IMG/VR virus record: IMGVR_UViG_3300017917_003859
Location: 32,001 to 96,000 of that record
Direction: 5' to 3' (one strand)
Source: a virus
DNA length: 64,000 nucleotides
In this document: positions 4,803 through 62,795 of the stretch, one piece after another
How the letters are laid out: each line of letters starts with the position of its first letter
Position numbering within the stretch: position 1 is the stretch's first letter
Notes under the pieces: model-generated
Database searches by the model: none
Seen by the model: the letters and a program-made list of their open reading frames with translations, nothing else
Told to the model about the DNA's origin: nothing
Position numbers and translations under genes: made by a program

Positions 4803-5663
4803 ATGTTAATAAAACATTCAAAATTTAAAAACACCAGTATATTATTTGAGTTACTAGTAAGACAAATAACAACTGATACTTTATCTGGTAAAAATTCAGA
4901 AGCAACTGATATACTAAAAAAATATTTTAGTAAAACTGAATTGGGTCGTGAATATAAATTATATGAAACTTTACTTAAACGTACTAATTTATCTGAAGGT
5001 AAAGCTGAAATAATAATCAATACTGTACTTGAAGGTGCTAAACAATTAAATAAATCAGCACTTAAACGACAAAAATATAATTTAATTAAAGAAATTAAAA
5101 ATCATTATGATTTAGAAAAATTCTTTAAAACTAAATTACCCCACTATAAGACACAGGCTGCTATATATAATTTATTAGAATCAATAGACCGCAAACCTTT
5201 ACTTACTGAACAAATTATTTCAAATAAAATAACAATTTTAGAACATTTAACTTCAACCTCAACTGAAAAAAATAAAGAAAAAGCTCCTGAAGTAATAAAT
5301 GAATTTACTAAATTTGATAAGGGAACTCGCAATTTAGCTTATAAAATTTTATTAGAAAAATTTAATGAAAAATATTCTAATTTTACTAACAATCAAAAAT
5401 TAATTTTAAAAGAATTTATCAATAGTGTAGATAATAATGCTAAATTAAAAGAATTTTATAATATTAAAATTAATGAAATAAAGAAAGATTTAATTTTATT
5501 AAATAAAACTACTTCTAATAAAGTTACTAAAATTAAAATTAATGAAATAGTTAATTTATTAGTTGAATTAAATAAAACTGATAAAGTAAGTAATGATCAT
5601 ATGATTAATTTACTTCAATATTGTGATTTAATTGAAGAATTAAAAAAAATAAATGGAAAGTAA
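4803..5663 (+). CDS. Basic helical head-module protein, function unknown
   Basis: 286-aa ORF between portal and protease, preceded by TATTTATA at 4780. Confidence 0.6.
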   Translation: MLIKHSKFKNTSILFELLVRQITTDTLSGKNSEATDILKKYFSKTELGREYKLYETLLKRTNLSEGKAEIIINTVLEGAKQLNKSALKRQKYNLIKEIKNHYDLEKFFKTKLPHYKTQAAIYNLLESIDRKPLLTEQIISNKITILEHLTSTSTEKNKEKAPEVINEFTKFDKGTRNLAYKILLEKFNEKYSNFTNNQKLILKEFINSVDNNAKLKEFYNIKINEIKKDLILLNKTTSNKVTKIKINEIVNLLVELNKTDKVSNDHMINLLQYCDLIEELKKINGK

Positions 5664-6441
5664 TAACCCAAATACCCCTAAATTTACCGTTGATCCTGAA
5701 ACTGGAAAAGTAGATTATGGTATTTATCATAATTTAATTAAAGTTTGGAAAGAATTTCTTATTTTTTATAGAGATACTTTTTTAAAAAACGAAAATGTTT
5801 TAGATAAAAATGATCCTAAATTTAATGAGATATTTAATGATTCTAAAAAACTTTATAATAAATTTATTAGTCATTTAAAATCTAATTATCCAAAAGATTA
5901 CGAAAATATAAAACTTATCATCAGTAAACAAATTAAAGAAATTATACAAGCTTCTTTAAAAGAAATGAGTGCTACAGGTGCAGGTTCAGGAGCAGCAACT
6001 TTCACTCCAGGCACTGGTGCTCAATATGCTACACCGTATGCTTTTAATCCAAATAAAAAAGCAAAAGGAGCTCAAAATATTTACTATTATAAACTGGGAT
6101 GGAAACCAGTACCTGCTGAAGAATTACATAAACAATCTAAAGTTATAGACCATAAAGATTTATGGAAGAAAAAATTAAAAGAATCTAGTGAATCTTCTCA
6201 ATCATATTTAAATACATTAAATTTACAAGATCCATCTTTAAAACAGTTTGTAGAAACTCGAGTTACGGATTTTGATAAAATAGAAGATAAATTAAATACT
6301 TTACTCCCATTGTTAAAAGATGCTAAAAAAGAAACAATGGAATATTATAAAAATAATCCTGAATTTAAAATAAAATATGGGACTGATTTAGCATTAGATT
6401 ATTTAAATGACCTAATAACATTATTTAAAGAGAAAAAATGA
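5653..6441 (+). CDS. Putative prohead core/internal protein with LKE-delimited segments
   Basis: Head-module position; KQIKEIIQASLKE and KKLKE junctions separate dissimilar segments. Confidence 0.55.
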   Translation: MESNNPNTPKFTVDPETGKVDYGIYHNLIKVWKEFLIFYRDTFLKNENVLDKNDPKFNEIFNDSKKLYNKFISHLKSNYPKDYENIKLIISKQIKEIIQASLKEMSATGAGSGAATFTPGTGAQYATPYAFNPNKKAKGAQNIYYYKLGWKPVPAEELHKQSKVIDHKDLWKKKLKESSESSQSYLNTLNLQDPSLKQFVETRVTDFDKIEDKLNTLLPLLKDAKKETMEYYKNNPEFKIKYGTDLALDYLNDLITLFKEKK

Positions 6442-8075
6442 AAACATTACAAGAACACTACAACGCTATCAAATCCGGAAAAGGCGGAAATAAAACTCAA
6501 TTTTTAAAACACGCACGTCAACTTTTCCCAGAATATATCAATCAATATTTTGATTTTGATACAGCAACTAACGTATTAAAATCTAAACAAATTATTAGTG
6601 AAGCAGCAGCTGGTGGTGTTGTTTCTAAAGGATTTGATATTTTTGATTGGAAAAAGATTTTAGCTGAAGAAGTAAAATCAATAGAAAAAGAAACATCTAA
6701 AGAAGTTACAGATAAGCAATCACATTCATATGATAATAAAGATATGAAAAATGCTGACAATATTAACTTTAATGAAATCATGAAAGGTTTTTATTGTGAA
6801 TTACGCAATGAAAAAAATGCTGGTAAAACAGGTGATGAATTAAAAGATATTGTAGTTAAAAATTTAGCTAAAGATCCTTTATATTATACTAAAAATGGTG
6901 AATTTGGAACTGAAGGTGTAGGATACACTGATGAAGCTCCAGGTTTAGGTAAGCCCAAAGAACCAAAAGGCAAACATAAATCCTCAGGATATGGTGATCT
7001 AGATACTGATAAAAAAGAAGAGAAAGTAAAGTCAAATGTTCAAGACTCATTAGGTGATAAAGAAGCAAAAACTTCAATGCCTAAAAAAGTTAAAGAAATG
7101 CCTGTAGCTCCTCAAAACGCTTCTGGTGTTAAAAAAATGGCTATGCCTGGCAAAGAAAAAAAAATTAAATTAAAGGAAGGATTTGAATATTCATTTAGTG
7201 AATATGATTTTGAGATTCCTGATAATATGAAAGAATATATTAAAACTAAAATTAAAACCAAATTTCCTGATATATCTGATAAAAGTATTGACTCATATAT
7301 AGAAAATACTGAAAACTACTATTATTCTGAAGCTCGAAAAGAAAATAAACGAGGCAGAGAATATCCATCTGTAAGCGCTGATGATATAGTAGATTTGATT
7401 ATTGCTTATATTGAAGATATAGAATTAAAGGAAGGTATAGGAATGTTTCATGACCCTATAGGATATAAAAAACCTGAATTAAGTGATATAGATAAAATGT
7501 TCACTAAAGAGTATAAAGGTAATGGCATGTATGTGATTTATAAAAATGATAAAGAAGTCAAAACTATTGAAGGTGAAGGTAATGCTAATGCTTGGATAAA
7601 TAATGAAAAAAGAAAATTAAAAGAATCACTTAACGAAAATATCAATAAAAAATATACTCATTTTGCTATCCGTAAATCAGATGGTAAAATAGTAGAAGGA
7701 TGGGAAACAGTAAGTGATGTTGAAAGCTTAAAATATTATGCTAAGATGGATCTTAAAGATATATTTCCTGATTCTAAATTATCTGAATTTGTTATTGTTT
7801 CTAAAAAAGGATTAGAAAAAAAAGGAATTGATCCATTTGATTACAAAAATTGGTATTGGTATAAAAGTGGTGATTCTGTAAATGAAAATGAAGATGTTTA
7901 TCAACAACTTGAAGATCTTCAAAATGAATTAACAAAAGAAAAAGATCCTGAACGTAAAGCTGAACTTGAAAAAAAGATCAAAGCTTTAGAAGCAGGATTA
8001 AAAGAAAATATAAATGTTGGAGAATCAAAACTTCGTTCTATAATTCGTAATATTATTAAAGAAGAATTAAAATAA
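6438..8075 (+). CDS. Putative prohead core/internal polyprotein
   Basis: Directly upstream of protease; starts MKTLQE; several LKE/LNE/VNE junctions; ends KLRSIIRNIIKEELK. Confidence 0.6.
   Translation: MKTLQEHYNAIKSGKGGNKTQFLKHARQLFPEYINQYFDFDTATNVLKSKQIISEAAAGGVVSKGFDIFDWKKILAEEVKSIEKETSKEVTDKQSHSYDNKDMKNADNINFNEIMKGFYCELRNEKNAGKTGDELKDIVVKNLAKDPLYYTKNGEFGTEGVGYTDEAPGLGKPKEPKGKHKSSGYGDLDTDKKEEKVKSNVQDSLGDKEAKTSMPKKVKEMPVAPQNASGVKKMAMPGKEKKIKLKEGFEYSFSEYDFEIPDNMKEYIKTKIKTKFPDISDKSIDSYIENTENYYYSEARKENKRGREYPSVSADDIVDLIIAYIEDIELKEGIGMFHDPIGYKKPELSDIDKMFTKEYKGNGMYVIYKNDKEVKTIEGEGNANAWINNEKRKLKESLNENINKKYTHFAIRKSDGKIVEGWETVSDVESLKYYAKMDLKDIFPDSKLSEFVIVSKKGLEKKGIDPFDYKNWYWYKSGDSVNENEDVYQQLEDLQNELTKEKDPERKAELEKKIKALEAGLKENINVGESKLRSIIRNIIKEELK
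7168..7435 (+). repeat. 13-bp direct repeat AATTAAAGGAAGG bracketing an in-frame 255-bp module
   Basis: Copies at 7168-7180 and 7423-7435, both encoding LKEG; spacing 255 nt = 85 codons. Confidence 0.75.
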
Positions 8076-8076
8076 T

Positions 8077-8682
8077 ATGAAATCATTACTTATAGAAACC
8101 CGCCAATTTAATGTATCACCAATGGCACTTACCGAAGGTAAAAGTGTTGGTGGTAATCCATTAGTTGAAGGTATTTTAGCTACTTGTGAAGTAAAAAACG
8201 GAAACGGTAGATATTATGCTAAAGATTTGTGGGAACGTGAAATTGATAAATACATGACTTTAGTTAAAGAAAGACGTGCTTGTGGTGAATTAGATCATCC
8301 TGATTCTCAAGTAATTAACTTAAAAAATGTATCACACAATATCAATAGTATTTGGTGGGATGGTGATAATATTATGGGTAAAATCGAAATTTTACCTACC
8401 CCATCAGGAAATATATTAAAAGCATTAATCGAATCGGGTATTAAAGTTGGTGTATCAAGTCGTGGGATGGGTAGCCTAAAACAAGTAGGTGAAGTATTAG
8501 AAGTACAAGATGACTTTGAATTATTATGTTGGGATTTTGTAAGTACACCTTCAAATCAAGGATCATGGATGACTTCTATTCATGAAGGAATGTCTACTCC
8601 AATTAATTCAAATCCATATTCTAGAGTTAATTCAATAATAACCGAGATTCTATGTGCAAATGGATCTTGTCCTATAATTTAA
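8077..8682 (+). CDS. Prohead core protease (T4 gp21-like)
   Basis: KNGNGRYY, GELDHP, ILPTPSG, GVSSRGMGS and WDFVSTPS are gp21-family motifs. Confidence 0.95.
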   Translation: MKSLLIETRQFNVSPMALTEGKSVGGNPLVEGILATCEVKNGNGRYYAKDLWEREIDKYMTLVKERRACGELDHPDSQVINLKNVSHNINSIWWDGDNIMGKIEILPTPSGNILKALIESGIKVGVSSRGMGSLKQVGEVLEVQDDFELLCWDFVSTPSNQGSWMTSIHEGMSTPINSNPYSRVNSIITEILCANGSCPII

Positions 8683-8885: not shown

Positions 8886-9920
8886 ATGGCAACAAACAGA
8901 GATTTGCTTAAAGAAGCAATCGCAGATGCTAAAACTGTTAAAGAAACAGCTATAGCTAATGCAAAAGCTGCTTTAGAAGAAGCCTTCACTCCTTATCTCA
9001 AAGAAAAATTAGCAGCTAAATTATCAGAAATGGAAGAAGCTGAAAATGAAGAGATGATGAATGAAGAAACTTATGAAGCAGAAATGGATGAAGTTAAAAA
9101 ACCTTCAACTATGGACGAAGAAATTTCTTTGGATGAACTTTTAGCCGAATTAGAAGAAGAAGACACTATGGATGAAACCGGTCTTTATGAAGCTAAGAAG
9201 GAAGAAAAAGAAGAAGAAGAAATGTCTATTGAAGATATGTCTGAAGATGATTTAAAATCATTTATTGAAGATGTTATTAAAGACATGGTGGCTGCTGGGG
9301 AACTAGAAGCTGGTCATGAAGGTGAAGAGGGTGAAGAAGCAGAAGAAGAAGCTGAAATGGAACCTGCTGAAGGTGAAGAAGAAGCTGAAGAGTCTGAAGA
9401 AGAATTAGATGAAGAAGTTAATATTGATGAACTTCTATCTGAAGATTTAGAAGAAGAAATGGATGAAGTTAATTTAGATGAACTTTTAGCTGAGCTAGAA
9501 GAAACTGATTCTAAAAAAGAAGAAAAAGAACTTGATGAAGCTAAAGAAGAAGAATCAATGAAAAAAGATCTTGAAGAAGCTTATACTACAATCAAAACTC
9601 TTAAATCTGAACTTCAAGAAATTAACTTGTTAAATGCTAAACTTCTTTACACTAACAAGATTTTCCGTAATAAATCTTTAACCGAATCACAAAAAATTAA
9701 AGTTTTAACAGCATTCGATAAAGCTACATCTAAAAAAGAAGCTCAGTTGGTTTATGAAACTTTATTAGAGAATTTTAAAACATCAACTACTAAAAATCCT
9801 ATTAAAGAATCATTAAATCCAGCATCTAAAATTTTAGGAAATGTTCAAGCAAAACCAATTATCGAATCAAATGATGCGTTCGCTCGTATGCGCGAATTAG
9901 CTGGGTTACATAAAAAATAA
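8886..9920 (+). CDS. Prohead scaffolding/core protein (gp22-like)
   Basis: Very acidic helical protein between protease and capsid gene; three E(I/V)x(L/I)DELL repeats; many L/M-x-E sites. Confidence 0.85.
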   Translation: MATNRDLLKEAIADAKTVKETAIANAKAALEEAFTPYLKEKLAAKLSEMEEAENEEMMNEETYEAEMDEVKKPSTMDEEISLDELLAELEEEDTMDETGLYEAKKEEKEEEEMSIEDMSEDDLKSFIEDVIKDMVAAGELEAGHEGEEGEEAEEEAEMEPAEGEEEAEESEEELDEEVNIDELLSEDLEEEMDEVNLDELLAELEETDSKKEEKELDEAKEEESMKKDLEEAYTTIKTLKSELQEINLLNAKLLYTNKIFRNKSLTESQKIKVLTAFDKATSKKEAQLVYETLLENFKTSTTKNPIKESLNPASKILGNVQAKPIIESNDAFARMRELAGLHKK

Positions 9921-9961: not shown

Positions 9962-11677
9962 ATGAGTTCAATTCAAACATTATTAGAATCAGCTAACCCA
10001 TGGAAATCACTTCAAAGTGATGCTGCTAAGTTAGCTACTAAATGGTCTAAAACAGGATTATTAGAGCATTTAGGAAATGACGTGGATAAAAATAACATGT
10101 CAATCTTATTAGAAAACCAAGCAAAACAGTTAGTAGTAGAAGCTAGCTCAACTGGTGCTGGTGCAACTGCAGGTACTTTTACTGTAGGTCAATCTGAAAA
10201 CTGGGCAGGTATTGCTTTACCATTAGTACGTAAAGTATTTGGTCAAATCGCTGCAAAAGAATTTGTTAGCGTTCAACCAATGAACTTACCTTCAGGTCTA
10301 GTGTTTTTCTTAGATTTCCAATACGGAACTAGCAAAAACCCATTCTCTTCAGGTGATTCACTTTATGGTACTCGTAGCGCAACTGGTCAGTTTCCATTCT
10401 CTACTACTGATACAACTGGTGGTTTATATGGTGCAGGTCGTTTTGCTTATTCAACTAACCAATTCTCAGCTTCAGTATTTATTACTGGTTCTGCTAACGG
10501 TGGTACTTTACCAGTTGTTGGTCCTGGAACAGGTTCAATTGTAACAGCTTCTTGGTCTGACTTAAACTTTGACGCTAATTACTCTGCTTCAGTAATTGCT
10601 AATGGAATTTACAAAGTTACTGTTCCTACAGCTTCTGGAGTATTATCTAACTTTGATCCAGATGGAGTTCGTGCGTTTGTTTTAACTACTGGTTCTTGGG
10701 CTACTGTAGCTAATTCTTTACCAGCATTTACATCTTACAACTACACTAACAACTCAATTACATTCTTTTTCACAGCTTCAGCTACATTAGCTGCTACTAT
10801 AGCTGGTGATAAAGCTGTAATTTATTACAATAAGATTACTGCTGATAACAATCGTGGTGATTTTGAAGATACAAGTTCTCCTTCATTCTCAGTTCCAAAT
10901 GCTGCTAGCGCTACAGCAATTTCTATCCCAGAAATCAATATCAAGATGCAATCTCAAGCTATCACTGCTAAAACTAAAAAGTTAAAAGCTGTATGGACTC
11001 CTGAATTTGCTCAAGATTTAAACGCTTATCAGAACATTGATGCTGAAGCTGAATTAACTAACATCATGAGTGAATATATTTCAATGGAAATTGATCTTGA
11101 AATTCTTGATATGTTAATCGAAGATGCTTCTGCAGCTACTGAATATTGGACAGTTCAAAATAACATCGCTTTAGGTGCTAGTGGTATTACTAATAGTAAC
11201 TTAGGTTTCTATAACACTCAAGGTGGTTGGTTCCAAACTCTTGGTACTAAAATGCAAAAAGTAAGTAACAAGATTCACCAATTAACTCTTCGTGGTGGTG
11301 CAAATTTCTTAGTATGTTCTCCAACAGTTGCTACTGTATTAGAATCAATCCCAGGATTTGCTGCTAACACTAATGGTGATGCTGCTAACATGGAATATGC
11401 AATGGGTGTTCAGAAAGTAGGTCAAATCAATAACCGTTACACAGTTTATAAGAACCCTTATATGACTGAAAACGTAATTTTGATGGGCTTCCGCGGTAAA
11501 CAATTCCTTGAATCAGGTGCTGTTTTCGCTCCATACATTCCGTTAATTATGACTCCTCTAGTGTACGATCCAAATACCTTCACTCCACGTAAAGGTTTAA
11601 TGACTCGTTACGCTAAGAAGATGTTACGTCCAGAATTTTATGGACGCATCTACGTGTCAGGTCTAAATACACTTTAA
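9962..11677 (+). CDS. Major capsid protein (T4 gp23-like)
   Basis: ILLENQ, LPLVRKVF, VSVQPMNLPSGLVF, KLKAVWTPEFAQDL, APYIPL, FTPRKGLMTRY signatures. Confidence 0.96.
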   Translation: MSSIQTLLESANPWKSLQSDAAKLATKWSKTGLLEHLGNDVDKNNMSILLENQAKQLVVEASSTGAGATAGTFTVGQSENWAGIALPLVRKVFGQIAAKEFVSVQPMNLPSGLVFFLDFQYGTSKNPFSSGDSLYGTRSATGQFPFSTTDTTGGLYGAGRFAYSTNQFSASVFITGSANGGTLPVVGPGTGSIVTASWSDLNFDANYSASVIANGIYKVTVPTASGVLSNFDPDGVRAFVLTTGSWATVANSLPAFTSYNYTNNSITFFFTASATLAATIAGDKAVIYYNKITADNNRGDFEDTSSPSFSVPNAASATAISIPEINIKMQSQAITAKTKKLKAVWTPEFAQDLNAYQNIDAEAELTNIMSEYISMEIDLEILDMLIEDASAATEYWTVQNNIALGASGITNSNLGFYNTQGGWFQTLGTKMQKVSNKIHQLTLRGGANFLVCSPTVATVLESIPGFAANTNGDAANMEYAMGVQKVGQINNRYTVYKNPYMTENVILMGFRGKQFLESGAVFAPYIPLIMTPLVYDPNTFTPRKGLMTRYAKKMLRPEFYGRIYVSGLNTL

Positions 11678-13282: not shown

Positions 13283-15997
13283 ATGAAAAAATTATTTTTA
13301 AGTTTGATTATTGTATTGAGTTTCTCAATCTTTAATCTAAAAGCAGGTCATGGTATGCCTTTAGTAAATCCTTCATTCACTGTAGGAACAACTGGATTAA
13401 CCTTTACTGCAAGTTCAAATGCTGCTACTTGCGGTGGTGGCCCATATTGGTTACAAGTAGAATTACGTTGTACTTCTAGTCAATTAACCGGAACACCTCC
13501 TTCAACCATGCAAACCAACTTATTAAACTGGACAGGCCCAGGAGTAAATTATAATAGCTTTCCTTGGTTTAATTCTTTATTGAATGTTCCTAATTATACA
13601 TTCCCTACTTGGACTGATAATTGTACTACAGAGCCTTACAACTCCGTCTTTATATCTTTCACTGGATTATGTCCCGGACAAACATATTTCTTTTCAGCTC
13701 GTGAGTGGGTGAGTGGTACTAATTCTGTTGGTCCTTGGACAACACCTTCTTCTTTTGTAGTACCAGGTACATTTGTTCCATTAAATTTTAATGTAACTGC
13801 TTCACCTAGTATATTTTGTTCACCTGGATCTTCAACTTTAACTATAAGTAGTATAACTGGAGGATGCGGCCAGACAAACATTCAATGGTTACCTGGTGGT
13901 TCTACTTTAAATCCTATAGTTGTATCACCTGCTTCAACAACTAACTATACTGCTTTAGTTACTACTCCTTGTAATACTTTATCCAAAGTAATAACAGTAA
14001 CTGTAGTTCCAAACGTCAGTGCTGCCTTTACTCCCTTAAATACAAATACTTGCGCAGGAATTCCAGTACAATATAATCATACAGGAACAGCAGGTGTATC
14101 TCATATTTGGAGTGTTTTTCCTATTGGAGCTACTATTAGTAGTAATACAATTTCAAACCCATCAATAACCTTTAACAACCCAGGACTATACACTATTTCT
14201 CATACAGTATCTGTAGGAACTTGTAGTAATGTAGTTACAACAACTGCTAATATAACAGGAATAGGCGCATCATTTACATCTAGTAATCCAAATCAATGTT
14301 TACAAAATAATAGTTTTACATTTAATTCAACAGCTACTGTTGGTACACAGTCTTATACTTTTTCACCATCTATAGGTTCTCCACCATCAAGTAATACTCC
14401 AAATTATGGCCCTGTCAGCTTTACATCTCCAGGAACATATACTGTAACTTACTCAAATACTAATTCTGGATGTACTTCTTCAACGTATTCTGTGATTAAT
14501 ATTTATCCTACCCCAACACTAGCTGTCTCTAATAGTGGACCTGTTTGTGAAGGAAATAATATTAATTTAACTTTAACAACAACAGCTACTAGCTATAGTT
14601 GGACAGGTCCTAATGGTTTTACTTCTACATTACAAAATCCATCTATAACATCTACATCAGTAGCGAATTCAGGTACATACCAAATTAATGTAGCTAGTGT
14701 TAATAATTGTACTAATACTAGTAATACTAATGTTGTTATTAATCCTCCTCCTCAAATAACAGTAACTACTCCAACAGCATGCTCCGGAGGTTCTTTTTCT
14801 ATAAATTCTTTTGGAGGTATAAACTATACTTGGACTGGTCCTAATAGTTATACATCTAATTCACAAAATTTATTTTTTACAAATGCTAATTCAAATTTAA
14901 ATGGATTGTATACTGTGGTTGGCACTGATGTTAATGGTTGTATAGGAACCAATACTGTTTTAGTTAATGTTAATCCGTCATTCACTATAAGCATAAACAA
15001 CAATAGTCCAATATGTGCTGGTTCTGTATTACAACTTAACAGCCCTCCAGGATTTATATATAATTGGTCTGGTCCGAATGGATTTAGCTCAACACAGCAA
15101 ACACCACAACTAAGCAATGTATCATCACAAACTACAGGACAGTATTCGTTAAATGTTCAAGATAATAATGGATGTCAAGGTAGTGCTGTAACTAATGTTA
15201 TTGTTAATCCTTCACCTCAACTCAGTATTACCAACTCCAAAGATAAAATATGTACTCCAGCATGTGTTGATTTTACATTAAATGCTAGTTCTAGTTTAGC
15301 ATCTTTAATTTGGGAATTTATCAGTGGTGTATCTACAAATACAAATACTTCAACTCAATGTTATACTAAAGGAGGAATATACACATCAACAGCAACTGCT
15401 ACTGATGTAAATGGATGTATTAGTGTTATAACTCATAGTGTGGAAGTATATGATACACCAACTGCTGATTTTATTTTCTCACCTTTAAAACCTATCGAGA
15501 ATGAATATGTACAATTTTCTAATGCCTCTTACGGAGCACCATTAACTAGTATGATAAATGGATGGTATATAAATAATGAACTTACTTCATTTGCTAACAG
15601 TCCTCAAATAGCATTCCAATATCCTGGAGACTATCTTGTGACTTTAATAGTTTTAACTACTCATGGTTGTAGTGATACTATTTCTAAAATAGTAAATATA
15701 AAAGAAAATTATTATTTATGGGTACCAAATTCATTTACCCCAAATAATGATGGATTAAATGATACATTCCAGCCAAAAGGTCAAGGAATTGCTAAGTACG
15801 AGTTGATGGTGTTTGATCGTTGGGGTGAAATGATTTTTAAAACTAAGGAATTTAATCAAGGGTGGGATGGTAAACATCATAGAGGTATAGATTATGGTAT
15901 TTATTGTAAAGATGATGTATATACTTGGTTAATAAAAGTAACTGATGTTTTTGGTAAATCACATGAATTAAAAGGACATGTTACATTAATAAAATAA
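13283..15997 (+). CDS. Secreted Ig/PKD-repeat protein with T9SS type-B (gliding-motility-associated) C-terminal domain
   Basis: Sec signal peptide; three WxGPN Ig-like repeats; PKD-like FQYPGDYLVTL; C-terminal VPNSFTPNNDGLNDTF..VFDRWG..GWDG..KGHVTLIK. Confidence 0.9.
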   Translation: MKKLFLSLIIVLSFSIFNLKAGHGMPLVNPSFTVGTTGLTFTASSNAATCGGGPYWLQVELRCTSSQLTGTPPSTMQTNLLNWTGPGVNYNSFPWFNSLLNVPNYTFPTWTDNCTTEPYNSVFISFTGLCPGQTYFFSAREWVSGTNSVGPWTTPSSFVVPGTFVPLNFNVTASPSIFCSPGSSTLTISSITGGCGQTNIQWLPGGSTLNPIVVSPASTTNYTALVTTPCNTLSKVITVTVVPNVSAAFTPLNTNTCAGIPVQYNHTGTAGVSHIWSVFPIGATISSNTISNPSITFNNPGLYTISHTVSVGTCSNVVTTTANITGIGASFTSSNPNQCLQNNSFTFNSTATVGTQSYTFSPSIGSPPSSNTPNYGPVSFTSPGTYTVTYSNTNSGCTSSTYSVINIYPTPTLAVSNSGPVCEGNNINLTLTTTATSYSWTGPNGFTSTLQNPSITSTSVANSGTYQINVASVNNCTNTSNTNVVINPPPQITVTTPTACSGGSFSINSFGGINYTWTGPNSYTSNSQNLFFTNANSNLNGLYTVVGTDVNGCIGTNTVLVNVNPSFTISINNNSPICAGSVLQLNSPPGFIYNWSGPNGFSSTQQTPQLSNVSSQTTGQYSLNVQDNNGCQGSAVTNVIVNPSPQLSITNSKDKICTPACVDFTLNASSSLASLIWEFISGVSTNTNTSTQCYTKGGIYTSTATATDVNGCISVITHSVEVYDTPTADFIFSPLKPIENEYVQFSNASYGAPLTSMINGWYINNELTSFANSPQIAFQYPGDYLVTLIVLTTHGCSDTISKIVNIKENYYLWVPNSFTPNNDGLNDTFQPKGQGIAKYELMVFDRWGEMIFKTKEFNQGWDGKHHRGIDYGIYCKDDVYTWLIKVTDVFGKSHELKGHVTLIK

Positions 15998-50055: not shown

Positions 50056-50607
50056 ATGATAAAATTAATTGATTTACTAAACGAAGGAAAACAAGTAGGC
50101 ACCTTATATCATTTTACTTCATTAAGTGGGGGAGAAAATATTATAAAATCAAACATCCTAAAACCTATAAATTATGATTTTATCTCTTTAACTAGAGATA
50201 AAAATTTATACAAAACCTCAGATCATATAGAAGGAGGATTAGTTAGATTAACTTTAGATGGAGATAAATTATCAAATAACTTTAAAATTAAACCATATGA
50301 TGAAGATCAAAGAAAAATATATGGTAGTTTTGAATCTGAAGAAAGAATTGATAAACCTATAAAAAATATTAAAGATTATATAACTAAAATTGATATAATT
50401 TTAGATTTTTATAAGTATGTTAATCGCAACTATCCTGAATTATTATTTTATGAACCTCAAGAAATAAAAAATGCTGTTTCTATTTTTAAATCATCTGGAA
50501 TACCATTTAATATATTATTAAAAAATAATAAAGTAGATTTAAAAACATGGTTAAAAATTTCTAAAGATTTTATACAAGATAATAAAAATGAATTTAACGA
50601 TTTTTAA
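50056..50607 (+). CDS. Putative ADP-ribosyltransferase-fold protein with KLIDLLNE leader
   Basis: ATG at 50056 after nrdB stop; LYHFTS, FISLTR and FESEER resemble ART strand-1 His, SxT and ExE elements. Confidence 0.5.
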   Translation: MIKLIDLLNEGKQVGTLYHFTSLSGGENIIKSNILKPINYDFISLTRDKNLYKTSDHIEGGLVRLTLDGDKLSNNFKIKPYDEDQRKIYGSFESEERIDKPIKNIKDYITKIDIILDFYKYVNRNYPELLFYEPQEIKNAVSIFKSSGIPFNILLKNNKVDLKTWLKISKDFIQDNKNEFNDF

Positions 50608-53414: not shown

Positions 53415-54206
53415 ATGATAAAGATTTCACATGAAGTGCCCCTTTGTTTATTAGAAAAAAGTAGAGAATTTAATGATTATGATTATTGTCTTCCTCATTT
53501 AATGGATGAAAATGAAGAATATAAACAATTTTTCCTTAAATCTAAAGAAATAGGTCGTCATATAATGATGGATAATAGTTTACATGAACTTGGAGTCCCA
53601 TATTCTGAAAAAAGATTGTTTTATTGGTTAAATGAATTACAACCACCAGAATTTTTTGTTCCTGATTATTGGGAAAATAAAACAGAATCTATTGTTTCTG
53701 CTAAAAAATGGATTGGATTTCAACAACAATATCCAAATACTACATTTATAGCTGTAGCACAGGCTAAATCATATGGTGAAGCATTAGAGTGTTATCAAAT
53801 TTATAAAGATTTAGGTTATAAAAAGATAGCATTTAGTTATGGAGCTTCTTTCTATAATAAATTATGTCCCCATCCTAATAAATCATTAGGAAAAGCATTA
53901 GGTAGAATTCATTTAATTTCTCATTTATATAAAGAAAATATTATTACTTCAACTGATAGAATCCATTTATTGGGTTGTGCTGTACCTCAAGAATTTAAAT
54001 GGTACAAAAACATGCCTTTTATTGAAAGTATAGATACTTCAAACCCAGTAATGGCTACTTTAGATGAAATGGAATATGGTAGTTATGGTTTATATGAAAA
54101 ACCTAAATCAAATATGAATGATTCATTTTATATAAAATTAAATCAAATAAATATTCCATTATTACATCATAATATTGAAAAATTTAGAAAAATAAATTCA
54201 TTATAA
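53415..54206 (+). CDS. TGT-fold protein, probable DNA 7-deazaguanine transglycosylase (DpdA-like)
   Basis: IMMDNS, VPD, AVAQ, IHLLG, SIDTS follow the TGT/DpdA barrel motif order; directly upstream of queC. Confidence 0.6.
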   Translation: MIKISHEVPLCLLEKSREFNDYDYCLPHLMDENEEYKQFFLKSKEIGRHIMMDNSLHELGVPYSEKRLFYWLNELQPPEFFVPDYWENKTESIVSAKKWIGFQQQYPNTTFIAVAQAKSYGEALECYQIYKDLGYKKIAFSYGASFYNKLCPHPNKSLGKALGRIHLISHLYKENIITSTDRIHLLGCAVPQEFKWYKNMPFIESIDTSNPVMATLDEMEYGSYGLYEKPKSNMNDSFYIKLNQINIPLLHHNIEKFRKINSL

Positions 54207-54253
54207 ATTTGGAATTTTAATTTAAAAATATTATATTTATTATAAATACAGTT

Positions 54254-55138
54254 ATGAAAAAATACGCAGTTTTATCGTTAAGTGGGGGAATGGATAGCTC
54301 CACATTATTACTCCATTTATTAGCAAATAATTATGAAGTAACTGCTTTATCATTTGATTATGGTCAAAAACATAAAGTTGAATTAGAAAAAGCAAAAGAA
54401 TTAGTAGAATACATTAATGGGAATTTTAATATAGATGAAGAATCAAAAACAGTTGATTATCCATATTATGTTAAACATCAAATCATTAAATTAGATGGTC
54501 TCTCTCAATTACTCAATTCATCATTAGTTGAAGGTGGTTCTGAAGTACCTGAAGGACACTATGCTGAAGAAAATATGAAAGATACAGTTGTTCCTAATCG
54601 TAATAAAATATTCAGTTCTATTATTCAAGCAGTTGCCTTATCAATAGCTGAAAAAAATAACGCTGAATGTTCTATAGCAATGGGAATTCATGCTGGTGAC
54701 CATGCTATTTATCCGGATTGTCGTCAAGAATTTAGAGATGCTGATTTTGAAGCATTTAAACAAGGAAATTGGGGTGCTGAAAGAGTAAATGTATATACAC
54801 CTTATCTTGATACTGATAAATTTGGTATTTTAAAGGATGGAGAATCTTGTTGTGAGTGTTTAAATTTAAATTTTGACGAAGTATATTCACGTACTAATAC
54901 AAGTTATAAACCAATACATATCCCTTCTTACAATAAACAAGGATTTACAGAACAAGGAAAATGGTACTCAGATTACAAATCAGCTAGTTCAGTAGAACGT
55001 ATTGAAGCATTTATGAAATTAGGAAGAAAAGATCCTGTTAAATATGCTGAAATTATTCCAAGTGGAGAAGCAATCCCTCGCACTTGGGAAGAAGTAGTAA
55101 TTCATGTTAAAAATATTTTAGAAAATCATAATAAATAA
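54254..55138 (+). CDS. queC: 7-cyano-7-deazaguanine synthase
   Basis: SGGMDS, FDYGQKH, VPNRN, YPDCR. Confidence 0.92.
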   Translation: MKKYAVLSLSGGMDSSTLLLHLLANNYEVTALSFDYGQKHKVELEKAKELVEYINGNFNIDEESKTVDYPYYVKHQIIKLDGLSQLLNSSLVEGGSEVPEGHYAEENMKDTVVPNRNKIFSSIIQAVALSIAEKNNAECSIAMGIHAGDHAIYPDCRQEFRDADFEAFKQGNWGAERVNVYTPYLDTDKFGILKDGESCCECLNLNFDEVYSRTNTSYKPIHIPSYNKQGFTEQGKWYSDYKSASSVERIEAFMKLGRKDPVKYAEIIPSGEAIPRTWEEVVIHVKNILENHNK

Positions 55139-55151
55139 AAAGGAGGTAAAT

Positions 55152-55493
55152 ATGTTTAATTTTGAAGATTATTTTAATTCATGGAATGATTTGTTTAAAT
55201 TTAATTATGAATACAAATCAACATCTTATAATTGGGATGAATTAAAAAAACAAGGTAAAGTAGAAGAAACTACTGAAGAAAAAAATGGTTTTAAAACTAT
55301 TACTCGAACCTTTATTTCAAAAGATGGAAATCAAAGAATTACTCAATCTGAAACTTTCCCTATTATTGATGAAACTAAACAAAAATTAATTAGTTTAGAT
55401 AAACAAATTTATGAAGCTGTAAAAAAAGAAGACTATGAAACAGCAGCTAAATTAAAAAAAGAAAAAGAAACTTTAATAAAAAATAAAAAATGA
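55152..55493 (+). CDS. Small protein with C-terminal UVR (UvrB/UvrC) coiled coil
   Basis: LDKQIYEAVKKEDYETAAKLK. Confidence 0.7.
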   Translation: MFNFEDYFNSWNDLFKFNYEYKSTSYNWDELKKQGKVEETTEEKNGFKTITRTFISKDGNQRITQSETFPIIDETKQKLISLDKQIYEAVKKEDYETAAKLKKEKETLIKNKK

Positions 55494-55741
55494 AACAAGC
55501 AATTTTATTCACAGCAAATTGGTGTTCTGCATGTCAAACAATGAAACCAATTATTGAACAAGTAACTAAAGAAACTAAAACTCAATTAGCAAAAATTGAT
55601 ACTGATTATGATGTTAGTTTAACTCAACAATATAATATTAAAAGTATTCCTACTTTAGTAATTTTAGAAAACGGAAATGAAATTAATCGAGTAGTAGGCA
55701 CTCAATCTGCTGAAAGCATTAGAAATCTAATTAAAGGATAA
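55490..55741 (+). CDS. Thioredoxin
   Basis: FTANWCSAC and IKSIPTL. Confidence 0.9.
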   Translation: MKQAILFTANWCSACQTMKPIIEQVTKETKTQLAKIDTDYDVSLTQQYNIKSIPTLVILENGNEINRVVGTQSAESIRNLIKG

Positions 55742-55742
55742 T

Positions 55743-56219
55743 ATGGCAAGATACATCTCAACAAAATTATTCGAAAACTACTCAGTAGCAATTCGTCAAT
55801 GGAAAGCACAACATTCACATTGTCAATTATTACATGGATATGCTTTAAAATTTAAAGTATGGTTTGCATCTAATGAACCTGACATTGATAAACAACTCGA
55901 TGATATGAATTGGATTGTTGATTATGGTGGATTTAAAACTCCTCCTCATGGTAATGGATTAAAAGATTGGATGAATCATATGTGGGATCATACAACATTA
56001 ATTCAAAAAGATGATCCATATGCTGATATTTTTGAGCAATTAGGGCAAATGGGTTTAGCTAAAGTGCATTTTTTAGAAAAAATGGGAGCTGAGTCATGTG
56101 CACGTTTAGTTTATGAACATTTTAATGAAGTTTTATCTAAAACAGATGCAGGTCGTTGTAAATGTATCAAGGTAGAATGTTTTGAAAATGATAATAATTC
56201 TTCAATTTATGAAGAATAA
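55743..56219 (+). CDS. queD: 6-carboxy-5,6,7,8-tetrahydropterin synthase
   Basis: CQLLHGY, WIVDYG, WDH, AE, VECFE; within que cluster. Confidence 0.88.
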   Translation: MARYISTKLFENYSVAIRQWKAQHSHCQLLHGYALKFKVWFASNEPDIDKQLDDMNWIVDYGGFKTPPHGNGLKDWMNHMWDHTTLIQKDDPYADIFEQLGQMGLAKVHFLEKMGAESCARLVYEHFNEVLSKTDAGRCKCIKVECFENDNNSSIYEE

Positions 56220-56263
56220 TTTGGATTATAAAATAAATTAATTTATATTTAAAAACAAAAGTT

Positions 56264-56509
56264 ATGGAAAATCAAGAAACAATGTTGTCCTTATATGATT
56301 ATTTAGGACATGCCGCTGGCTCTCAATTAGGAAAAGATGTAGCAGCTGCTGCTAAAAATGAAAAGTGTGGATTTGAAATTAGAGTAGTCTCTAATCCTAA
56401 ATATACTGGTGAAGTTATGTTATATCCTAAATCTTTTTTAGATAAGTATTTTAAAAAAACAAAAACAACTGACCAGAATATTTCTGATAATGACATACTA
56501 CCATTTTAA
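56264..56509 (+). CDS. Hypothetical protein
   Basis: 81-aa ORF preceded by TTTG-N20-TATATTTA (56220-56251) and AAGTTATG. Confidence 0.65.
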   Translation: MENQETMLSLYDYLGHAAGSQLGKDVAAAAKNEKCGFEIRVVSNPKYTGEVMLYPKSFLDKYFKKTKTTDQNISDNDILPF

Positions 56510-56511
56510 TT

Positions 56512-57351
56512 ATGAGTAAAATACAAAAAGATAAATTATTAATTAGTTCCGACTTCTATTCAGTACAAGGAGAAGGAAAAACTACAGGTGTACCTTCATA
56601 TTTTGTACGTTTAGGTATGTGCAATTTAACTTGTGGAATGTCTCGTTTATTTGCCAATAAGTTAATGAAAGAAAAATCATTAGAAGATGGTGAAATCTTT
56701 GAAGGTGACTTACATAAGGAAGGTAAAGCAACTTGGACTTGTGATTCTACTTCTCAGTGGTTATGGAGAGGTGAAGATAAAGATTTCCAATACTTAATTG
56801 ATAGGTGGAAAGAACAAGGCATCTATGAAGATATTAAGAACGGTACTATCCATATTATTTGGACAGGTGGTGAACCTACAATTAAAGGACATCAGGAAGC
56901 AATTTGTAATTTTTTAGATTATTGGAATCAAATAGATCCACATTATTCATATAATGAAATAGAGACAAATGGTACTGTTTATATTGAAGATGGAGAAAAT
57001 AAAGGAGTATTTAATTACATAAATCAAATTAACTGCTCACCAAAGTTAGCTAACTCAGGTATGACTGAGAAACAGCGTATTAATCCCGATGCTATTAAAC
57101 GCATTATGGAACACGCTAACTATCAATTCAAATTCGTTATTAGTACAGAAGATGATGTTAAGGAAATATTTCGTGATTTTGTAGAACCATTTAATATACC
57201 GCTTAAAAATGTAGTTTGTATGCCTGGGTTAGATGATCAAACTGATTTTCATGAGCGTACTCAATTTTGTTTAGAAATGGCTAAAAAATATAAATTTATT
57301 GGTCTTACTCGTTTACATATTTCGGCTTGGGATAAAACATTAAATGTATAA
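56512..57351 (+). CDS. queE: 7-carboxy-7-deazaguanine synthase (radical SAM)
   Basis: FYSVQGEG, FVRLGMCNLTC..CDS, TGGEP, IETNG, SPK, KFV, RLH. Confidence 0.9.
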   Translation: MSKIQKDKLLISSDFYSVQGEGKTTGVPSYFVRLGMCNLTCGMSRLFANKLMKEKSLEDGEIFEGDLHKEGKATWTCDSTSQWLWRGEDKDFQYLIDRWKEQGIYEDIKNGTIHIIWTGGEPTIKGHQEAICNFLDYWNQIDPHYSYNEIETNGTVYIEDGENKGVFNYINQINCSPKLANSGMTEKQRINPDAIKRIMEHANYQFKFVISTEDDVKEIFRDFVEPFNIPLKNVVCMPGLDDQTDFHERTQFCLEMAKKYKFIGLTRLHISAWDKTLNV

Positions 57352-57352
57352 A

Positions 57353-57505
57353 ATGGAAAAGGAAGACGCTAAAAAACACTTAATGAAATTAAGAATAGAA
57401 GCTTTATATAGAGAGTGGGCTATTTTAAAAGAAGTTGTATCTTCAACCCCTAATGATCAAGATTTAGGTAAAAAAATTAGAGAATATTTTAATAATAAAA
57501 AATAA
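57353..57505 (+). CDS. 50-aa hypothetical protein (absent from ORF track)
   Basis: MEKEDAKKHL...TPNDQDLGKKIREYFNNKK fills the queE-folE gap. Confidence 0.65.
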   Translation: MEKEDAKKHLMKLRIEALYREWAILKEVVSSTPNDQDLGKKIREYFNNKK

Positions 57506-57506
57506 T

Positions 57507-58148
57507 ATGAAATATATCAATAAAGCAAATGAAAATACTCCTCGTACTGCTAAGGAGATTGAAAAGATGATTAAAGAAGCATCTAAACATTATGGTAAAT
57601 TTTTAAAATCAATGGGATTTGATTATGAACAAGATCCTCAAACCCTAGATACTCCTCGTCGTGTAGCTAAAGCCTGGTTAAAAGATCTAGTTATAGGCTC
57701 AGTTACCGAAGAACCATCAATGACTGTATTTCCTAATGAAGAAAATTATAATGGAGTAGTAATTCAAACAGGAATTCCTGTAGTATCACTTTGTGCGCAC
57801 CATAATCTACCTTTTACAGGTTATGCTTCGGTAGCATATGTGCCTAAAGATAAAGTAGTAGGTTTAAGTAAATTAAATCGTGTTGTTGATTGGTTTTCTC
57901 GTCGCCCACAAATGCAAGAATCTCTTACTCAACAAATTCATAGTTTTTTATCTGAAAAATTAGGATGTGAGTCTGTAGCTGTTAGTATTGCTTCTAAACA
58001 TATGTGTTGTTCAAATCGTGGTATTAAACATCCCACATCAACTATGACTACTAATAAATTTAGTGGTGTATTTATGGAACCAAATAATATGATTCGTGAA
58101 GAATTTTTACATGCAATTGCAAAAAATGGAAAAGATATCAATCAATAA
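57507..58148 (+). CDS. folE: GTP cyclohydrolase I
   Basis: TPRRVAK, SLCAHHNLPF, GLSKLNR, RPQMQE, HMC..RG. Confidence 0.95.
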   Translation: MKYINKANENTPRTAKEIEKMIKEASKHYGKFLKSMGFDYEQDPQTLDTPRRVAKAWLKDLVIGSVTEEPSMTVFPNEENYNGVVIQTGIPVVSLCAHHNLPFTGYASVAYVPKDKVVGLSKLNRVVDWFSRRPQMQESLTQQIHSFLSEKLGCESVAVSIASKHMCCSNRGIKHPTSTMTTNKFSGVFMEPNNMIREEFLHAIAKNGKDINQ

Positions 58149-60347: not shown

Positions 60348-60382
60348 TTTATATTTTTATTAAAAATTTAAAACTAAAACAC

Positions 60383-62131
60383 TTGTATCAGTCAATTTAC
60401 TACGATCACCAATCATATACTTATTATCTCCGTGATGATGATATGGGTTGGTCTGAATTTAAATATCAACCAACATATTGGAAACGAGTAGATGAATGGC
60501 AAGAAAATGCTCAACCTGTACTGACCGGAGGATGGGCAGTACCAACTAAAAAATATAATAAAGATGATTCTAATTTATTAGAAAAAGATATTGATAAATG
60601 TCTTGTTGTATTACGAGAATTATATTACAAATTAGATGATGTTGTGCCTAAATGGCATAACATTGTTTATTTAGATATTGAAATCGAAATGGGAGGTGCT
60701 TTAACACCTGAATACATCAAAGCTGCACCTATGCCTCTTACATCCATTGCTTTAATTGACATTACCACTAAACAAAAAATATGTTTAATTGTTGATAAAA
60801 CAGGTGAAATTAAAGAAACAAATCAAGATAGCAAACATATTATACCTTGTGGTTCAGAAAAAGAATTAATTAAACGCTTTCTAGATAAATGGGAAGAATT
60901 AGACCCAACAATCATCTGTGGATATAACTCAGAATATTTTGATGTACCTTACTTGTATTTTAGAATTAAACAAGTACTAGGTGAGGATGAAGTATTGCGT
61001 TTATCTCCCATTAAAAAAATTAATTATAGAGAATTTGCTGGTCAAATGCAACTTACTATAGGAGGTGTTAACCATTTAGATTATATGCTTTTACATAAAA
61101 AGTATATTATGAAAGAAGAACCCTCATATAAATTAGGAGATATAGGAACTAAATATGTTAATTTAGGTAAAATAGAGTATGAAGGTAATTTAAATACTTT
61201 ATTTAAAAACGATATAAATAAATTTATAGATTATAACTTACGAGATGTTGAAATTATAGAAGCATTAGAAGGTAAATTAAAATTTATCGACTTAACAATC
61301 ATGATTTCTCATATTTGTAATATACCTTACGAAAGTATTTACTACAATACAGTAATGAATGAAGGTGCTATTTTAAAGTATTTAAGACGTGAAGGCATCA
61401 TTTCACCAAACAAACCAACTACTCATAATCCATCACTTAAAAACATTAAGGAAAGTTATGCTGGTGGTTATTTATTGGAACCTATTCCTGGATTATATTT
61501 TGATGTTATTGATTTAGACTTTACTTCACTATATCCTTCAATTATTAAATCACTTAATTTAGGTATTGAAACATTAGTAGGTAGAATTAAAGTACCTTAC
61601 AATGCTACTTACGAGCAAAATCATAGTTTAGAAAAACTTAAAGAACGCAATCCTGAAGAAGAAATAACTATTGAAAAATTAGACAAAACAAATTATACAC
61701 TTAAATCAGCTAAAATTAAATTAAAAACATTAATTGATATAATTGAAAAAAACAATTACACAATATCTGCTTCAGGTGCTATGTTTGATACTAACGAAAA
61801 AAGTATTGTATCTAAAATATTAGCAGGGTGGTTTGACAAACGAGAGCATTATTGTGGTTTAAAGAAAAAAGCAGGTAAAGCAGAGGATTGGGCCAATTAT
61901 AAATTATATGATTTGTTTCAACATGCTTTTAAAATCTTACAAAACGCAATGTATGGCACATTTGCTATTAATGGATGGAGATACACTGATGGTCATTTGA
62001 TTTGTAGTGCTGCTATTACAAATAGTGGACAAAGATTAACTATGTCTACTATAGATTTTGTAAATGATAAAATAAACAATGAATATTTACAATTAAGTAA
62101 AGATAAGTTAATTACTAAATTTGGTTTATGA
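60383..62131 (+). CDS. Family B DNA polymerase, N-terminal part (exonuclease + motifs A and B); TTG start
   Basis: LDIE, GYNSEYFD, YNLRD exo motifs; DFTSLYPS; KILQNAMYG; ends before DTDS. Confidence 0.9.
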   Translation: MYQSIYYDHQSYTYYLRDDDMGWSEFKYQPTYWKRVDEWQENAQPVLTGGWAVPTKKYNKDDSNLLEKDIDKCLVVLRELYYKLDDVVPKWHNIVYLDIEIEMGGALTPEYIKAAPMPLTSIALIDITTKQKICLIVDKTGEIKETNQDSKHIIPCGSEKELIKRFLDKWEELDPTIICGYNSEYFDVPYLYFRIKQVLGEDEVLRLSPIKKINYREFAGQMQLTIGGVNHLDYMLLHKKYIMKEEPSYKLGDIGTKYVNLGKIEYEGNLNTLFKNDINKFIDYNLRDVEIIEALEGKLKFIDLTIMISHICNIPYESIYYNTVMNEGAILKYLRREGIISPNKPTTHNPSLKNIKESYAGGYLLEPIPGLYFDVIDLDFTSLYPSIIKSLNLGIETLVGRIKVPYNATYEQNHSLEKLKERNPEEEITIEKLDKTNYTLKSAKIKLKTLIDIIEKNNYTISASGAMFDTNEKSIVSKILAGWFDKREHYCGLKKKAGKAEDWANYKLYDLFQHAFKILQNAMYGTFAINGWRYTDGHLICSAAITNSGQRLTMSTIDFVNDKINNEYLQLSKDKLITKFGL

Positions 62132-62153
62132 TATTTATAACAAATACTGGATT

Positions 62154-62795
62154 ATGAAAAAATCACAACTTAGGCAAATAATTAAAGAAGAAATATTTAA
62201 AATATTAAATGAGAATATTTCTAAAATCATAGATAATTTTGAACAAGGACTAATGGTTTATATTATGGATGCATATCAACGATTAGACAATGATGAAGCT
62301 GAGTTATTAGAACTAAATGAATTATATGATTCTATAAATTGGTTTCTTAAAAATACCCCAGAAAAAGAGTTTATAGAATATGAAAAAGAAAATATGGAAT
62401 TTTTTATAAATAATAGATCTCAAATTGAACATTATTTAATAGATAATATAAATGAACCTATTAAAGTTCAATGGCCCGGATTACCAGATGTATTTTATTA
62501 TACTCCATTAGTAAAAAAGAATCAAATCTGGATTAAATTAGGGACTACCCCTAATTCAAAATTAGACCCCAAATATGATTACTACAACCCCAGTGAAGAT
62601 TTAGAGTTCCCTATACGAATTAAAAATAAAGATGATTTTGAAAAATATTCTAAAGAATTAGAGGTAAAAGGGTATTATTGGTATGGAGGAAAACCCCCAT
62701 CATCGTTTAACCCTGCAGAACAAACAAACGGAATAGAATATCCTTTTAAATTATTAAGAATAGATAAAAATTCAAAACAGTTAGGATATAATTAA
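62154..62795 (+). CDS. Inserted protein with MKKSQLRQIIKEE leader
   Basis: ATG 62154, 14 nt after TATTTATA (62132-39); ILNE and INE junctions; lies between the two polB parts. Confidence 0.7.
   Translation: MKKSQLRQIIKEEIFKILNENISKIIDNFEQGLMVYIMDAYQRLDNDEAELLELNELYDSINWFLKNTPEKEFIEYEKENMEFFINNRSQIEHYLIDNINEPIKVQWPGLPDVFYYTPLVKKNQIWIKLGTTPNSKLDPKYDYYNPSEDLEFPIRIKNKDDFEKYSKELEVKGYYWYGGKPPSSFNPAEQTNGIEYPFKLLRIDKNSKQLGYN

Follow-up and report, generated by a model that had tools for sequence, protein, structure and literature searches.

Interchangeable N-terminal leader peptides in a T4-like phage genome as candidate capsid-targeting propeptides

Introduction

Several otherwise unrelated proteins encoded in a 64,000-nucleotide stretch of viral DNA (the window; bases 32001–96000 of the 155,027 bp contig IMGVR_UViG_3300017917_003859) carry related amphipathic helices that end in glutamate. 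The question that this locus raises is whether these helices are address peptides which take proteins into the phage head, or whether they serve some other partner. An initial annotation had proposed the former, as an undescribed system of packaging tag, protease site, variable domain and late promoter. In the following, coordinates refer to the window unless marked 'genome', and a slash within a peptide marks the position behind the glutamate. The strings on which the proposal was built are all in place: MKKSQLRQIIKEEIFKILNE at 62154, MIKLIDLLNE at 50056, KLRSIIRNIIKEEL at 8028–8069, KQIKEIIQASLKE at 5926–5964, LEE/MAR at 30–47 and the TerL N-terminus MSQDLKQIIREE at 1326. To judge from their sequences, these items are not equivalent: 62154 has the canonical long leader, 50056 belongs to a short class and TerL is a look-alike. 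The shared leaders themselves are real, and the observation is stronger than first reported.

The T4 capsid targeting sequence (CTS) is the textbook case of protein loading for injection, and it is found on a handful of proteins in T-even phages. The diverse internal proteins (IPs) of these phages share only the tag (PMC3012670, PMC12373910). For packaging, the first 10 residues of T4 IPIII are enough; targeting involves residues 4 and 7 of the tag and processing involves residues 8 and 10, and the head protease gp21 cuts after L/I-x-E (PMC9026906). By analogy with this system, and on balance, we lean towards reading the leaders described here as capsid-targeting propeptides of the T4 kind, which would form a variant of the T4 system in a clade of aquatic T4-like phages of Bacteroidota.

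Two leader types on unrelated proteins

The contig has 28.6% GC and 221 predicted proteins, with almost every gene on the same strand. From sequence comparison, about 18 of these proteins appear to be tagged and otherwise unrelated to one another. The window holds an example of each leader type:

62154..62213, + strand: long leader MKKSQLRQIIKEEIFKILNE (20 residues) of the open reading frame (ORF) 62154–62795 (213 residues), with its ATG at 62154; 43.6 bits against the leader profile.
50056..50085, + strand: short leader MIKLIDLLNE of ORF 50056–50607 (183 residues), with its ATG at 50056.

The long leader, MKKSELKQIIKEEIxKVLNE, has 20 residues and heads six unrelated proteins (window 62154; genome 99725, 122765, 21633, 124341 and 124603). 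A leader profile was built from five of the genome's copies and then searched against the genome's proteins. The five copies score 36–46 bits, all of them N-terminal, and the sixth, diverged copy is found at 14.8 bits. About five more proteins have diverged forms at their N-termini (genome 3, 19829, 26486, 30136 and 31850). The short class, M-I-K-L-x-D-[LI]-L-x-E, has 10 residues and occurs at window 50056 and at genome 24584, 25633 and 106662; together with looser forms at genome 14823, 15259 and 22007, the short type comes to seven proteins. A loose regular expression applied to the whole genome gives seven matches, which are of one flavour throughout. Ten of the 18 tagged genes lie within the 18 kb immediately upstream of TerL.

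Both window examples lie among replication genes. The leader gene 62154–62795, with its own promoter motif, sits between two ORFs of a split family-B DNA polymerase, where 60383–62131 covers the exonuclease along with the first part of the polymerase domain and 62820–63701 covers the remainder. The 50056–50607 gene, which encodes a predicted ADP-ribosyltransferase (ART) fold, is wedged between the genes for the small (49095–50045) and large (50668–52392) subunits of ribonucleotide reductase.

The simplest alternative is that the likeness arose by compositional chance in an AT-rich genome or by plain paralogy, and the low GC content and the abundance of Lys, Ile, Glu and Asn in the encoded proteins are in its favour. 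The pattern L[KR]QII[KR]EE occurs six times in the 221 proteins, compared with 0.0 times in 500 residue shuffles, and II[KR]EE occurs seven times, compared with 0.23. The T4-type register (hydrophobic-x-x-hydrophobic-hydrophobic-x-E within the first 10–13 residues) is found in 18 of the 221 proteins and in 2.9 of the shuffled ones. The motif thus exceeds what a Lys/Ile/Glu-rich proteome would yield. BLASTP detected no similarity among the bodies of the leader-bearing proteins, and 1,134 protein clusters with unrelated sequences downstream carry the leader in metagenomes (see below). The Leu, Arg, Ile and Ser codons vary synonymously between leader copies; therefore, selection works on the leader peptide and not on the DNA. 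Compositional chance, paralogy and duplication at the DNA level were rejected on these grounds, and we regard this alternative as negligible.

Conservation ends at a hydrophobic-x-Glu

Similarity among the leaders ends at hydrophobic-x-Glu, the motif of the T4 head protease. In the profile-ranked leaders, the information content is 2–4.8 bits at residues 1–20, 1.2 bits at residue 21 (N, D, G, E, S or A) and 0.1–0.3 bits beyond. Since this set was ranked by the profile itself, an independent set of IMG/VR ORFs was picked on residues 1–13 only. Hydrophobic-x-E with its Glu within residues 16–24 is present in 152 of these 171 leaders, in 94 exactly at residue 20, and each later position has it in only one to four. 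All 171 also have I-[KR]-E at residues 10–12, which was forced by the selection pattern.

The initial annotation had taken the tag to end in the L/I-x-E site of a T4-type head protease. This reading of the end agrees with the data, and such a protease is encoded within a head module of T4 type:

1326–2897: TerL.
2908–4767: gp20-type portal protein.
8077..8682, + strand: T4 gp21-type prohead protease with the N-terminus MKSLLIE (Pfam Peptidase_S77, 1.7e-29; PHROG 207, 1.4e-57).
8886..9920, + strand: acidic scaffold protein with N-terminal RDLLKE, three [LI]DELL[AS]E repeats (9129, 9423 and 9474) and C-terminal ARMRELAGL (9885–9908).
9962..11677, + strand: T4 gp23-type major capsid protein, 57% identical to its counterpart in Flavobacterium phage immuto.

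Portal, head protease (S77), scaffold and capsid protein, all of T4 type, mark the source as a T4-like phage. Its closest cultured relative, as measured by the capsid protein, is Flavobacterium phage vB_FspM_immuto. The predicted maturation site of the capsid protein is QLVVE/A after residue 60 (10127–10141), and LLE/S is also present at residues 7–9. In the capsid-protein alignment, LTE/A of T4 gp23 and LRE/S of T4 gp24 coincide with QLVVE/A here and with V-x-E/[AST] in the relatives.

We compared the leaders with the N-termini in the T4 record, which are MKTYQEFIAE in IPII and IPIII, MAKINELLRE in gp24, MELITELFDE in Alt and MNEPQLLIE in gp21. The short leaders MIKLIDLLNE, MIKLVDLLKE and MIKLIDILKE fit the 10-residue T4 register exactly, with hydrophobic residues at positions 4, 7 and 8 and Glu at position 10. 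MIKLIDLLNE shares five of its 10 residues with the gp24 propeptide, a stretch too short for homology. The link to T4 is thus best described as an analogy of register, not as demonstrable descent.

Leaders are exchanged at a fixed junction

The strongest evidence for the capsid-tag reading, as far as the aligned families can tell, is that the leaders are interchangeable. Variable domains had been proposed behind the tag, and the homologous bodies do exchange tags at a fixed junction. The 50056 protein has 182 homologues, 120 of which were listed and compared. In these 120 sequences, the body starts with a nearly invariant GKQVGxLYH[FY]T, and the leader before it is variable: MIKLIDLLNE, MIKLxxILKEITE, MKKxELKQIIKEEILKVLNE, an RMQxLAGI-type peptide or another helix. 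Every leader in this ART-like family ends in hydrophobic-x-E right before the glycine (E/GKQVG). In a second family, which is Acb1-like, MIKLKDLLNE/EKQTYDYGC and FKRMQKLAGLITE/EKQTYDYGC share one body start. In the 62154 family, a homologue with 72% identity has the 14-residue, short-type MIKLSTLLKEILNE in place of the 20-residue leader, and the junction lies after LNE.

A third leader class, xFKRMQKLAGLITE, is seen outside the window and is a copy of the C-terminal peptide of the scaffold. The peptide [KR]MQKLAG[IL] forms the scaffold C-terminus here and in five of the five relatives with a scaffold that were examined. In the fetched loci it is C-terminal in 14 cases, near the N-terminus and followed by I-T-E in 14 cases and elsewhere in three. 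This scaffold-type peptide substitutes for the helical leaders on both the ART-like and the Acb1-like bodies. It is also seen near the N-termini of small unrelated proteins at genome 123350 and in six further loci (L130–L135). In two relatives (G005 and G009), genes with canonical leaders lie inside the head module.

Distribution in metagenomes and relatives

A 30-position profile of the long leader was searched against 1.84 billion representative proteins. The leader heads 1,134 protein clusters (50% identity, E<=1e-3), and it starts at residue 1 in 133 of the best 148 matches. The metagenomic consensus is MKKSELKQIIKEEI(S/R)KVL(N/K)E, followed by unrelated sequences. In IMG/VR, a back-translated pattern matches at least 119 contig stretches, with arrays of up to seven tagged genes. 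The matching IMG/VR loci, 1 Mb in total, contain 229 leader ORFs (median length, 100 residues), and 169 of their bodies fall into 150 similarity clusters. The portable N-terminal tag on unrelated bodies, as first claimed, is therefore found by profile scans in the genome and in its relatives alike. In three metagenomic proteins (P0005, P0009 and P0018) the leader occurs two or three times, including one internal copy, as in VLRE/GAPHEEITKSQLKQIIKEELIKVLKE/; polyproteins, gene fusions or wrongly called starts could account for them.

According to CheckV completeness estimates, the 24 largest leader contigs represent genomes of about 150–240 kb, either as fragments or nearly in full. An S77 protease is present in all four leader-bearing contigs of at least 90% completeness and in 12 of the 24 overall. 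Near-complete relatives have two to 11 long leaders each, and immuto (vB_FspM_immuto_2-6A, MW353175) has three leader genes, which start at 113188, 102880 and 102294. The leader profile has no match in T4, Rhodothermus phage RM378, Pelagibacter phage HTVC008M or Microcystis phage Mel-JY01. A tblastn search of cultured phages with the 22-residue leader gave nothing useful, immuto included, the query being short and filtered as low-complexity. Judged from these matches, the long leader is a clade-specific dialect. A Bacteroidota host is indicated for the present phage because its 904-residue protein at 13283–15997, which has PKD domains, ends in a CHU_C type IX secretion sorting domain.

Degrons and systems like those of ribosomally synthesized and post-translationally modified peptides carry the same signature, a nearly unchanging leader shared by numerous unrelated small proteins. 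The leader could accordingly be recognized by an enzyme other than the head protease, such as a modifying enzyme or a degradation machine that times turnover. By eye, no conserved enzyme gene was noticed beside the dispersed tagged genes, either here or in those head regions of the relatives that were read. The only radical-S-adenosylmethionine-like gene recognized by eye in the window (56512–57351; N-terminal motif, no Pfam match) is grouped with queC, queD and folE, three genes with Pfam matches that indicate 7-deazaguanine synthesis. Nor does this alternative account for the tie to the scaffold C-terminus or for the setting among head genes, and we consider it improbable.

Tagged bodies as candidate cargo

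Neither Pfam nor PHROGs gave a family for the scaffold or for the 62154, 50056, 5653 and 6438 proteins, and the same holds for most other tagged proteins. Among the predicted structures, the clearest case is the body behind the short leader at 50056:

50086..50607, + strand: body of the 50056 protein, with a probable ADP-ribosyltransferase fold (Foldseek of the predicted model).

The model, computed from an alignment of 48 sequences, has a predicted local distance difference test score (pLDDT) of 75 and a predicted template-modelling (TM) score of 0.73. The leader is detached in the model, with a pLDDT of about 50. The top folds in the PDB, every one of them ART-type, are Tpt1/KptA, DarT, CC0527 and Scabin, with E values of 1e-4 to 1e-2 and TM scores of 0.4–0.5. 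Members of the ART superfamily have a conserved His or Arg at the NAD site, a central S/T motif and a catalytic Glu. His19, Ser44, Arg47 and Glu95 are invariant in the 48 sequences, and the body has no Pfam match. The 50056 body is thus predicted to be an ADP-ribosyltransferase-fold protein. Alt, which T4 packages, is an ADP-ribosyltransferase, so one of the variable domains would resemble a known cargo.

Two other bodies are recognizable. The body at genome 106662 is an Acb1-like 2H phosphoesterase (Pfam Acb1, 31.3 bits with a cut-off of 27), and another short-leader body in the genome is an NT5C-like nucleotidase. For the 62154 body, the ESM Atlas gave no usable match and Foldseek found no significant fold in the PDB; in its AlphaFold2 model, the first 40 residues have a pLDDT of 55–65.

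Leader-like helices in the head module

Four further helices lie in or next to the head module, and they differ in how well they hold up against the relatives:

3..722, + strand: 3' part of a 290-residue ORF that starts with MKRKDLYQYIRQEIINELSE at genome 31850, 150 nucleotides before the window; ELEE/MAR at 27–47 (LEE/MAR at 30–47).
1326..1370, + strand: N-terminus of TerL, MSQDLKQIIREEYIK, a look-alike with 14.6 bits compared with 36–46 for true leaders.
5926..5964, + strand: leader-like helix KQIKEIIQASLKE, followed by MSATGAG, within the head-module ORF 5653–6441.
8028..8072, + strand: C-terminal leader-like helix KLRSIIRNIIKEELK of ORF 6438–8075, the gene directly before the protease; a match to the regular expression.

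The helix of ORF 5653 is internal here, whereas in five relatives it forms the N-terminus of the orthologue, as M..LK.YIK.L...L.E with xSATGxG behind it. The ORF at genome 31850 has a perfect promoter site (18.4–20.9 bits) 7 nucleotides upstream. From ELxE/MAR onward it is a paralogue of genome 30136–30975, with 49% identity over 80 residues. Both paralogues lie just upstream of TerL and consist of a leader, a winged helix-turn-helix (HTH)-like domain that starts from ELxE/MAR, an acidic linker and a C-terminal helix; in the 31850 protein, residues 65–145 resemble a winged HTH. Its orthologues in relatives have canonical leaders such as MKKSDLKKHIKEEILSILKE, and in two relatives they end in the scaffold C-terminal motif. 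The paralogues could be a small terminase or a DNA-binding head protein.

The other two helices, both of which had been counted as tags, were dropped. MSQDLKQIIREEY of TerL has the low score given above, and what the relatives keep is EYIKCAxDP, with a leader-like part that differs among them or is absent. For ORF 6438, the C-terminal helix lacks conservation across six relatives, although relative G004 has a similar amphipathic end.

Promoter motifs and expression context

Two strand-specific classes of promoter-like motif were found in the genome. Class 1, ATATTTATAATAAA, precedes head, fibre and baseplate genes at a distance of 4–23 nucleotides from the ATG. With a threshold of 12 bits, there are 23 sites of this class on the + strand and one on the − strand. 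Class 2, GGCTTACA-N(10–22)-TATATTTA, is nearly confined to 126–155 kb, where it precedes small genes, often after a GC-rich hairpin. The sites that concern the window are as follows:

4776, 11723, 12405, 17342, 21808, 27047, 36559 and 53390: promoter-like sites.
62128..62145, + strand: copy of the structural-gene promoter, ATGATATTTATAACAAAT, 8 nucleotides before the ATG at 62154; 11.3–11.5 bits.

The spacing of the copy before 62154 is that found before baseplate, fibre and head genes. We scored the tagged genes with a position weight matrix built without the leader genes. The scores are 11.3 bits for 62154 and 11.6 for genome 99725, both at the canonical spacing of 8 nucleotides, and 14–18 for genome 30136, 31850 and 14823. 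A promoter-like motif had been claimed before both tagged ORFs of the replication block; this is right for 62154 (ATATTTATAACAAAT) and wrong for 50056, which scores 0.9 bits. Promoter and tag had also been proposed as parts of one system. Only five of the 18 tagged genes have a structural-gene promoter of their own (Fisher p about 0.05), and a fixed, obligatory cassette of the two was rejected. The tagged genes do keep out of the block of early-type promoters, where none of 68 genes is tagged, compared with 18 of 149 elsewhere (p=8e-4). A BLAST search with T4 gp55 found no homologue of this late sigma factor, and the ATATTTATAATAAA-class motif also precedes queC.

The region 53415–58148 holds genes for 7-deazaguanine DNA modification: QueC (54254–55138), PTPS/QueD (55743–56219) and GTP cyclohydrolase I (57507–58148), with a thioredoxin at 55490–55741. 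Modifications of the 7-deazaguanine type are known in relatives of immuto (PMC10516641).

Proposed mechanism and its alternatives

In the mechanism that we propose, the amphipathic leader helix would dock a protein on the scaffolding core or on the inner capsid surface during prohead assembly. The gp21-type S77 protease would then cleave behind the Glu of the leader, and the mature body would remain in the head with the DNA and enter the host upon infection. The long leader can be read as two tandem units in the T4 register (L6, I9, I10, E12 and I14, V17, L18, E20), which would provide two candidate cut sites. The cargo would include the putative ART-fold enzyme 50056, in parallel to T4 Alt, as well as the Acb1-like 2H phosphoesterase and the NT5C-like nucleotidase. 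A wider claim is tentative, and we are at best evenly inclined to believe it: that the clade uses interchangeable address peptides (long, short and scaffold C-terminal copy), each phage loading a dozen or more proteins into its capsid for co-injection, with a cargo of more than 1,000 families that includes ART-like and Acb1-like enzymes.

Several points weigh against capsid targeting. The tagged proteins number about 18, compared with four or five in T4. A promoter of their own is lacking in the majority of tagged genes, and 'late' timing of the ATATTTATAATAAA class is at most tentative because the motif also precedes queC and no gp55 homologue was found. The co-occurrence with an S77 protease may only mirror ancestry, the leader belonging to one clade and being absent from four other S77 phages. 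A literature search for proteomic data on the clade, phage immuto included, found none. The leader-bearing 31850 protein, with its winged HTH, stands where a small terminase would be expected, and such a terminase would not be cleaved cargo. Hydrophobic-x-E near residue 20 is missing in about 11% of leaders; the immuto proteins MKKSQLRQIIKEALDAS and MKKSELVKLIKEELNIQD are examples. Finally, the leader of 62154 continues into a long body helix in the AlphaFold2 model (residues 3–43), which makes a cleanly separable tag hard to discern in this protein.

The last three points would sit well with a different role, in which the helix is a docking or oligomerization module for a partner outside the prohead (a phage hub, a host protein, the packaging motor or another virion part) and hydrophobic-x-E is the mere look of an amphipathic helix rich in Lys, Glu and Ile. 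The leader-like N-termini of both TerL and the possible small terminase upstream of it agree with such a role, and the restriction to one clade fits any clade-specific partner equally. However, a docking module leaves unexplained why conservation ends exactly after Glu, and why two families without relation to each other both swap the leader, at the same junction, for the C-terminal peptide of the scaffold. The resemblance of TerL is also weak and not conserved. We judge this role unlikely, although of the alternatives it is the one to be taken seriously.

Flavobacterium phage immuto, a relative in culture, would allow a direct test of the capsid-tag reading. If this reading is true, co-injection would be a major modular strategy in abundant aquatic phages, and one short motif would pick more than 1,000 candidate injected proteins, likely anti-defence or host-takeover factors, from sequence alone. 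The leader would then be a handle for listing the injected effectors of uncultured phages as well as a ready-made packaging tag. The exchange between helical leaders and a scaffold-tail mimic at one protease-type junction suggests an evolutionary route of cargo systems.

Comparison with known systems

The principle is known from T4 and other phages (PMC3012670, PMC9026906, PMC12373910), and the term 'undescribed system' in the initial annotation was an overstatement. The novelty lies in the peptides, in their scale and in their interchangeability. A literature search for the leader peptide strings found no paper, and none of the papers searched describes the scale or the exchange with the scaffold mimic.

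Like the T4 CTS (IPI, IPII, IPIII, Alt and gp24), the leaders are N-terminal tags on unrelated, mostly small proteins and end in L/I-x-E. Homologues of gp20, gp21, gp22 and gp23 are present, and one candidate cargo has a predicted ART fold, which would match Alt. Unlike the T4 CTS, the main leader has 20 residues in two register units, with no detectable sequence homology. The numbers also differ, with three IPs plus Alt in T4 and about 18 tagged genes per genome and more than 1,100 tagged metagenomic clusters here. Moreover, the tagged genes are scattered, with some between the split polymerase halves and between nrdB and nrdA, and the tags come in three interchangeable classes. The T4 tags have been studied by experiment, whereas the leaders described here are known from sequence.

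Encapsulin cargo-loading peptides and the coat-binding helix of P22-type scaffolds offer a second parallel, in that a scaffold-anchoring terminal peptide is in principle enough to address proteins inside a shell. In contrast to these, the scaffold peptide of the present clade has moved to the N-terminus, is followed by an I-T-E site and swaps with two unrelated helical leaders. Giant phages provide a third parallel: many of their head-internal proteins, the substrates of phiKZ gp175 and SPN3US gp245, are cut after Glu by a diverged gp21-type protease and have propeptides with redundant sites (PMC9026906). Those propeptides were identified protein by protein using mass spectrometry, and we found no single near-invariant portable leader described for them (PMC9026906).

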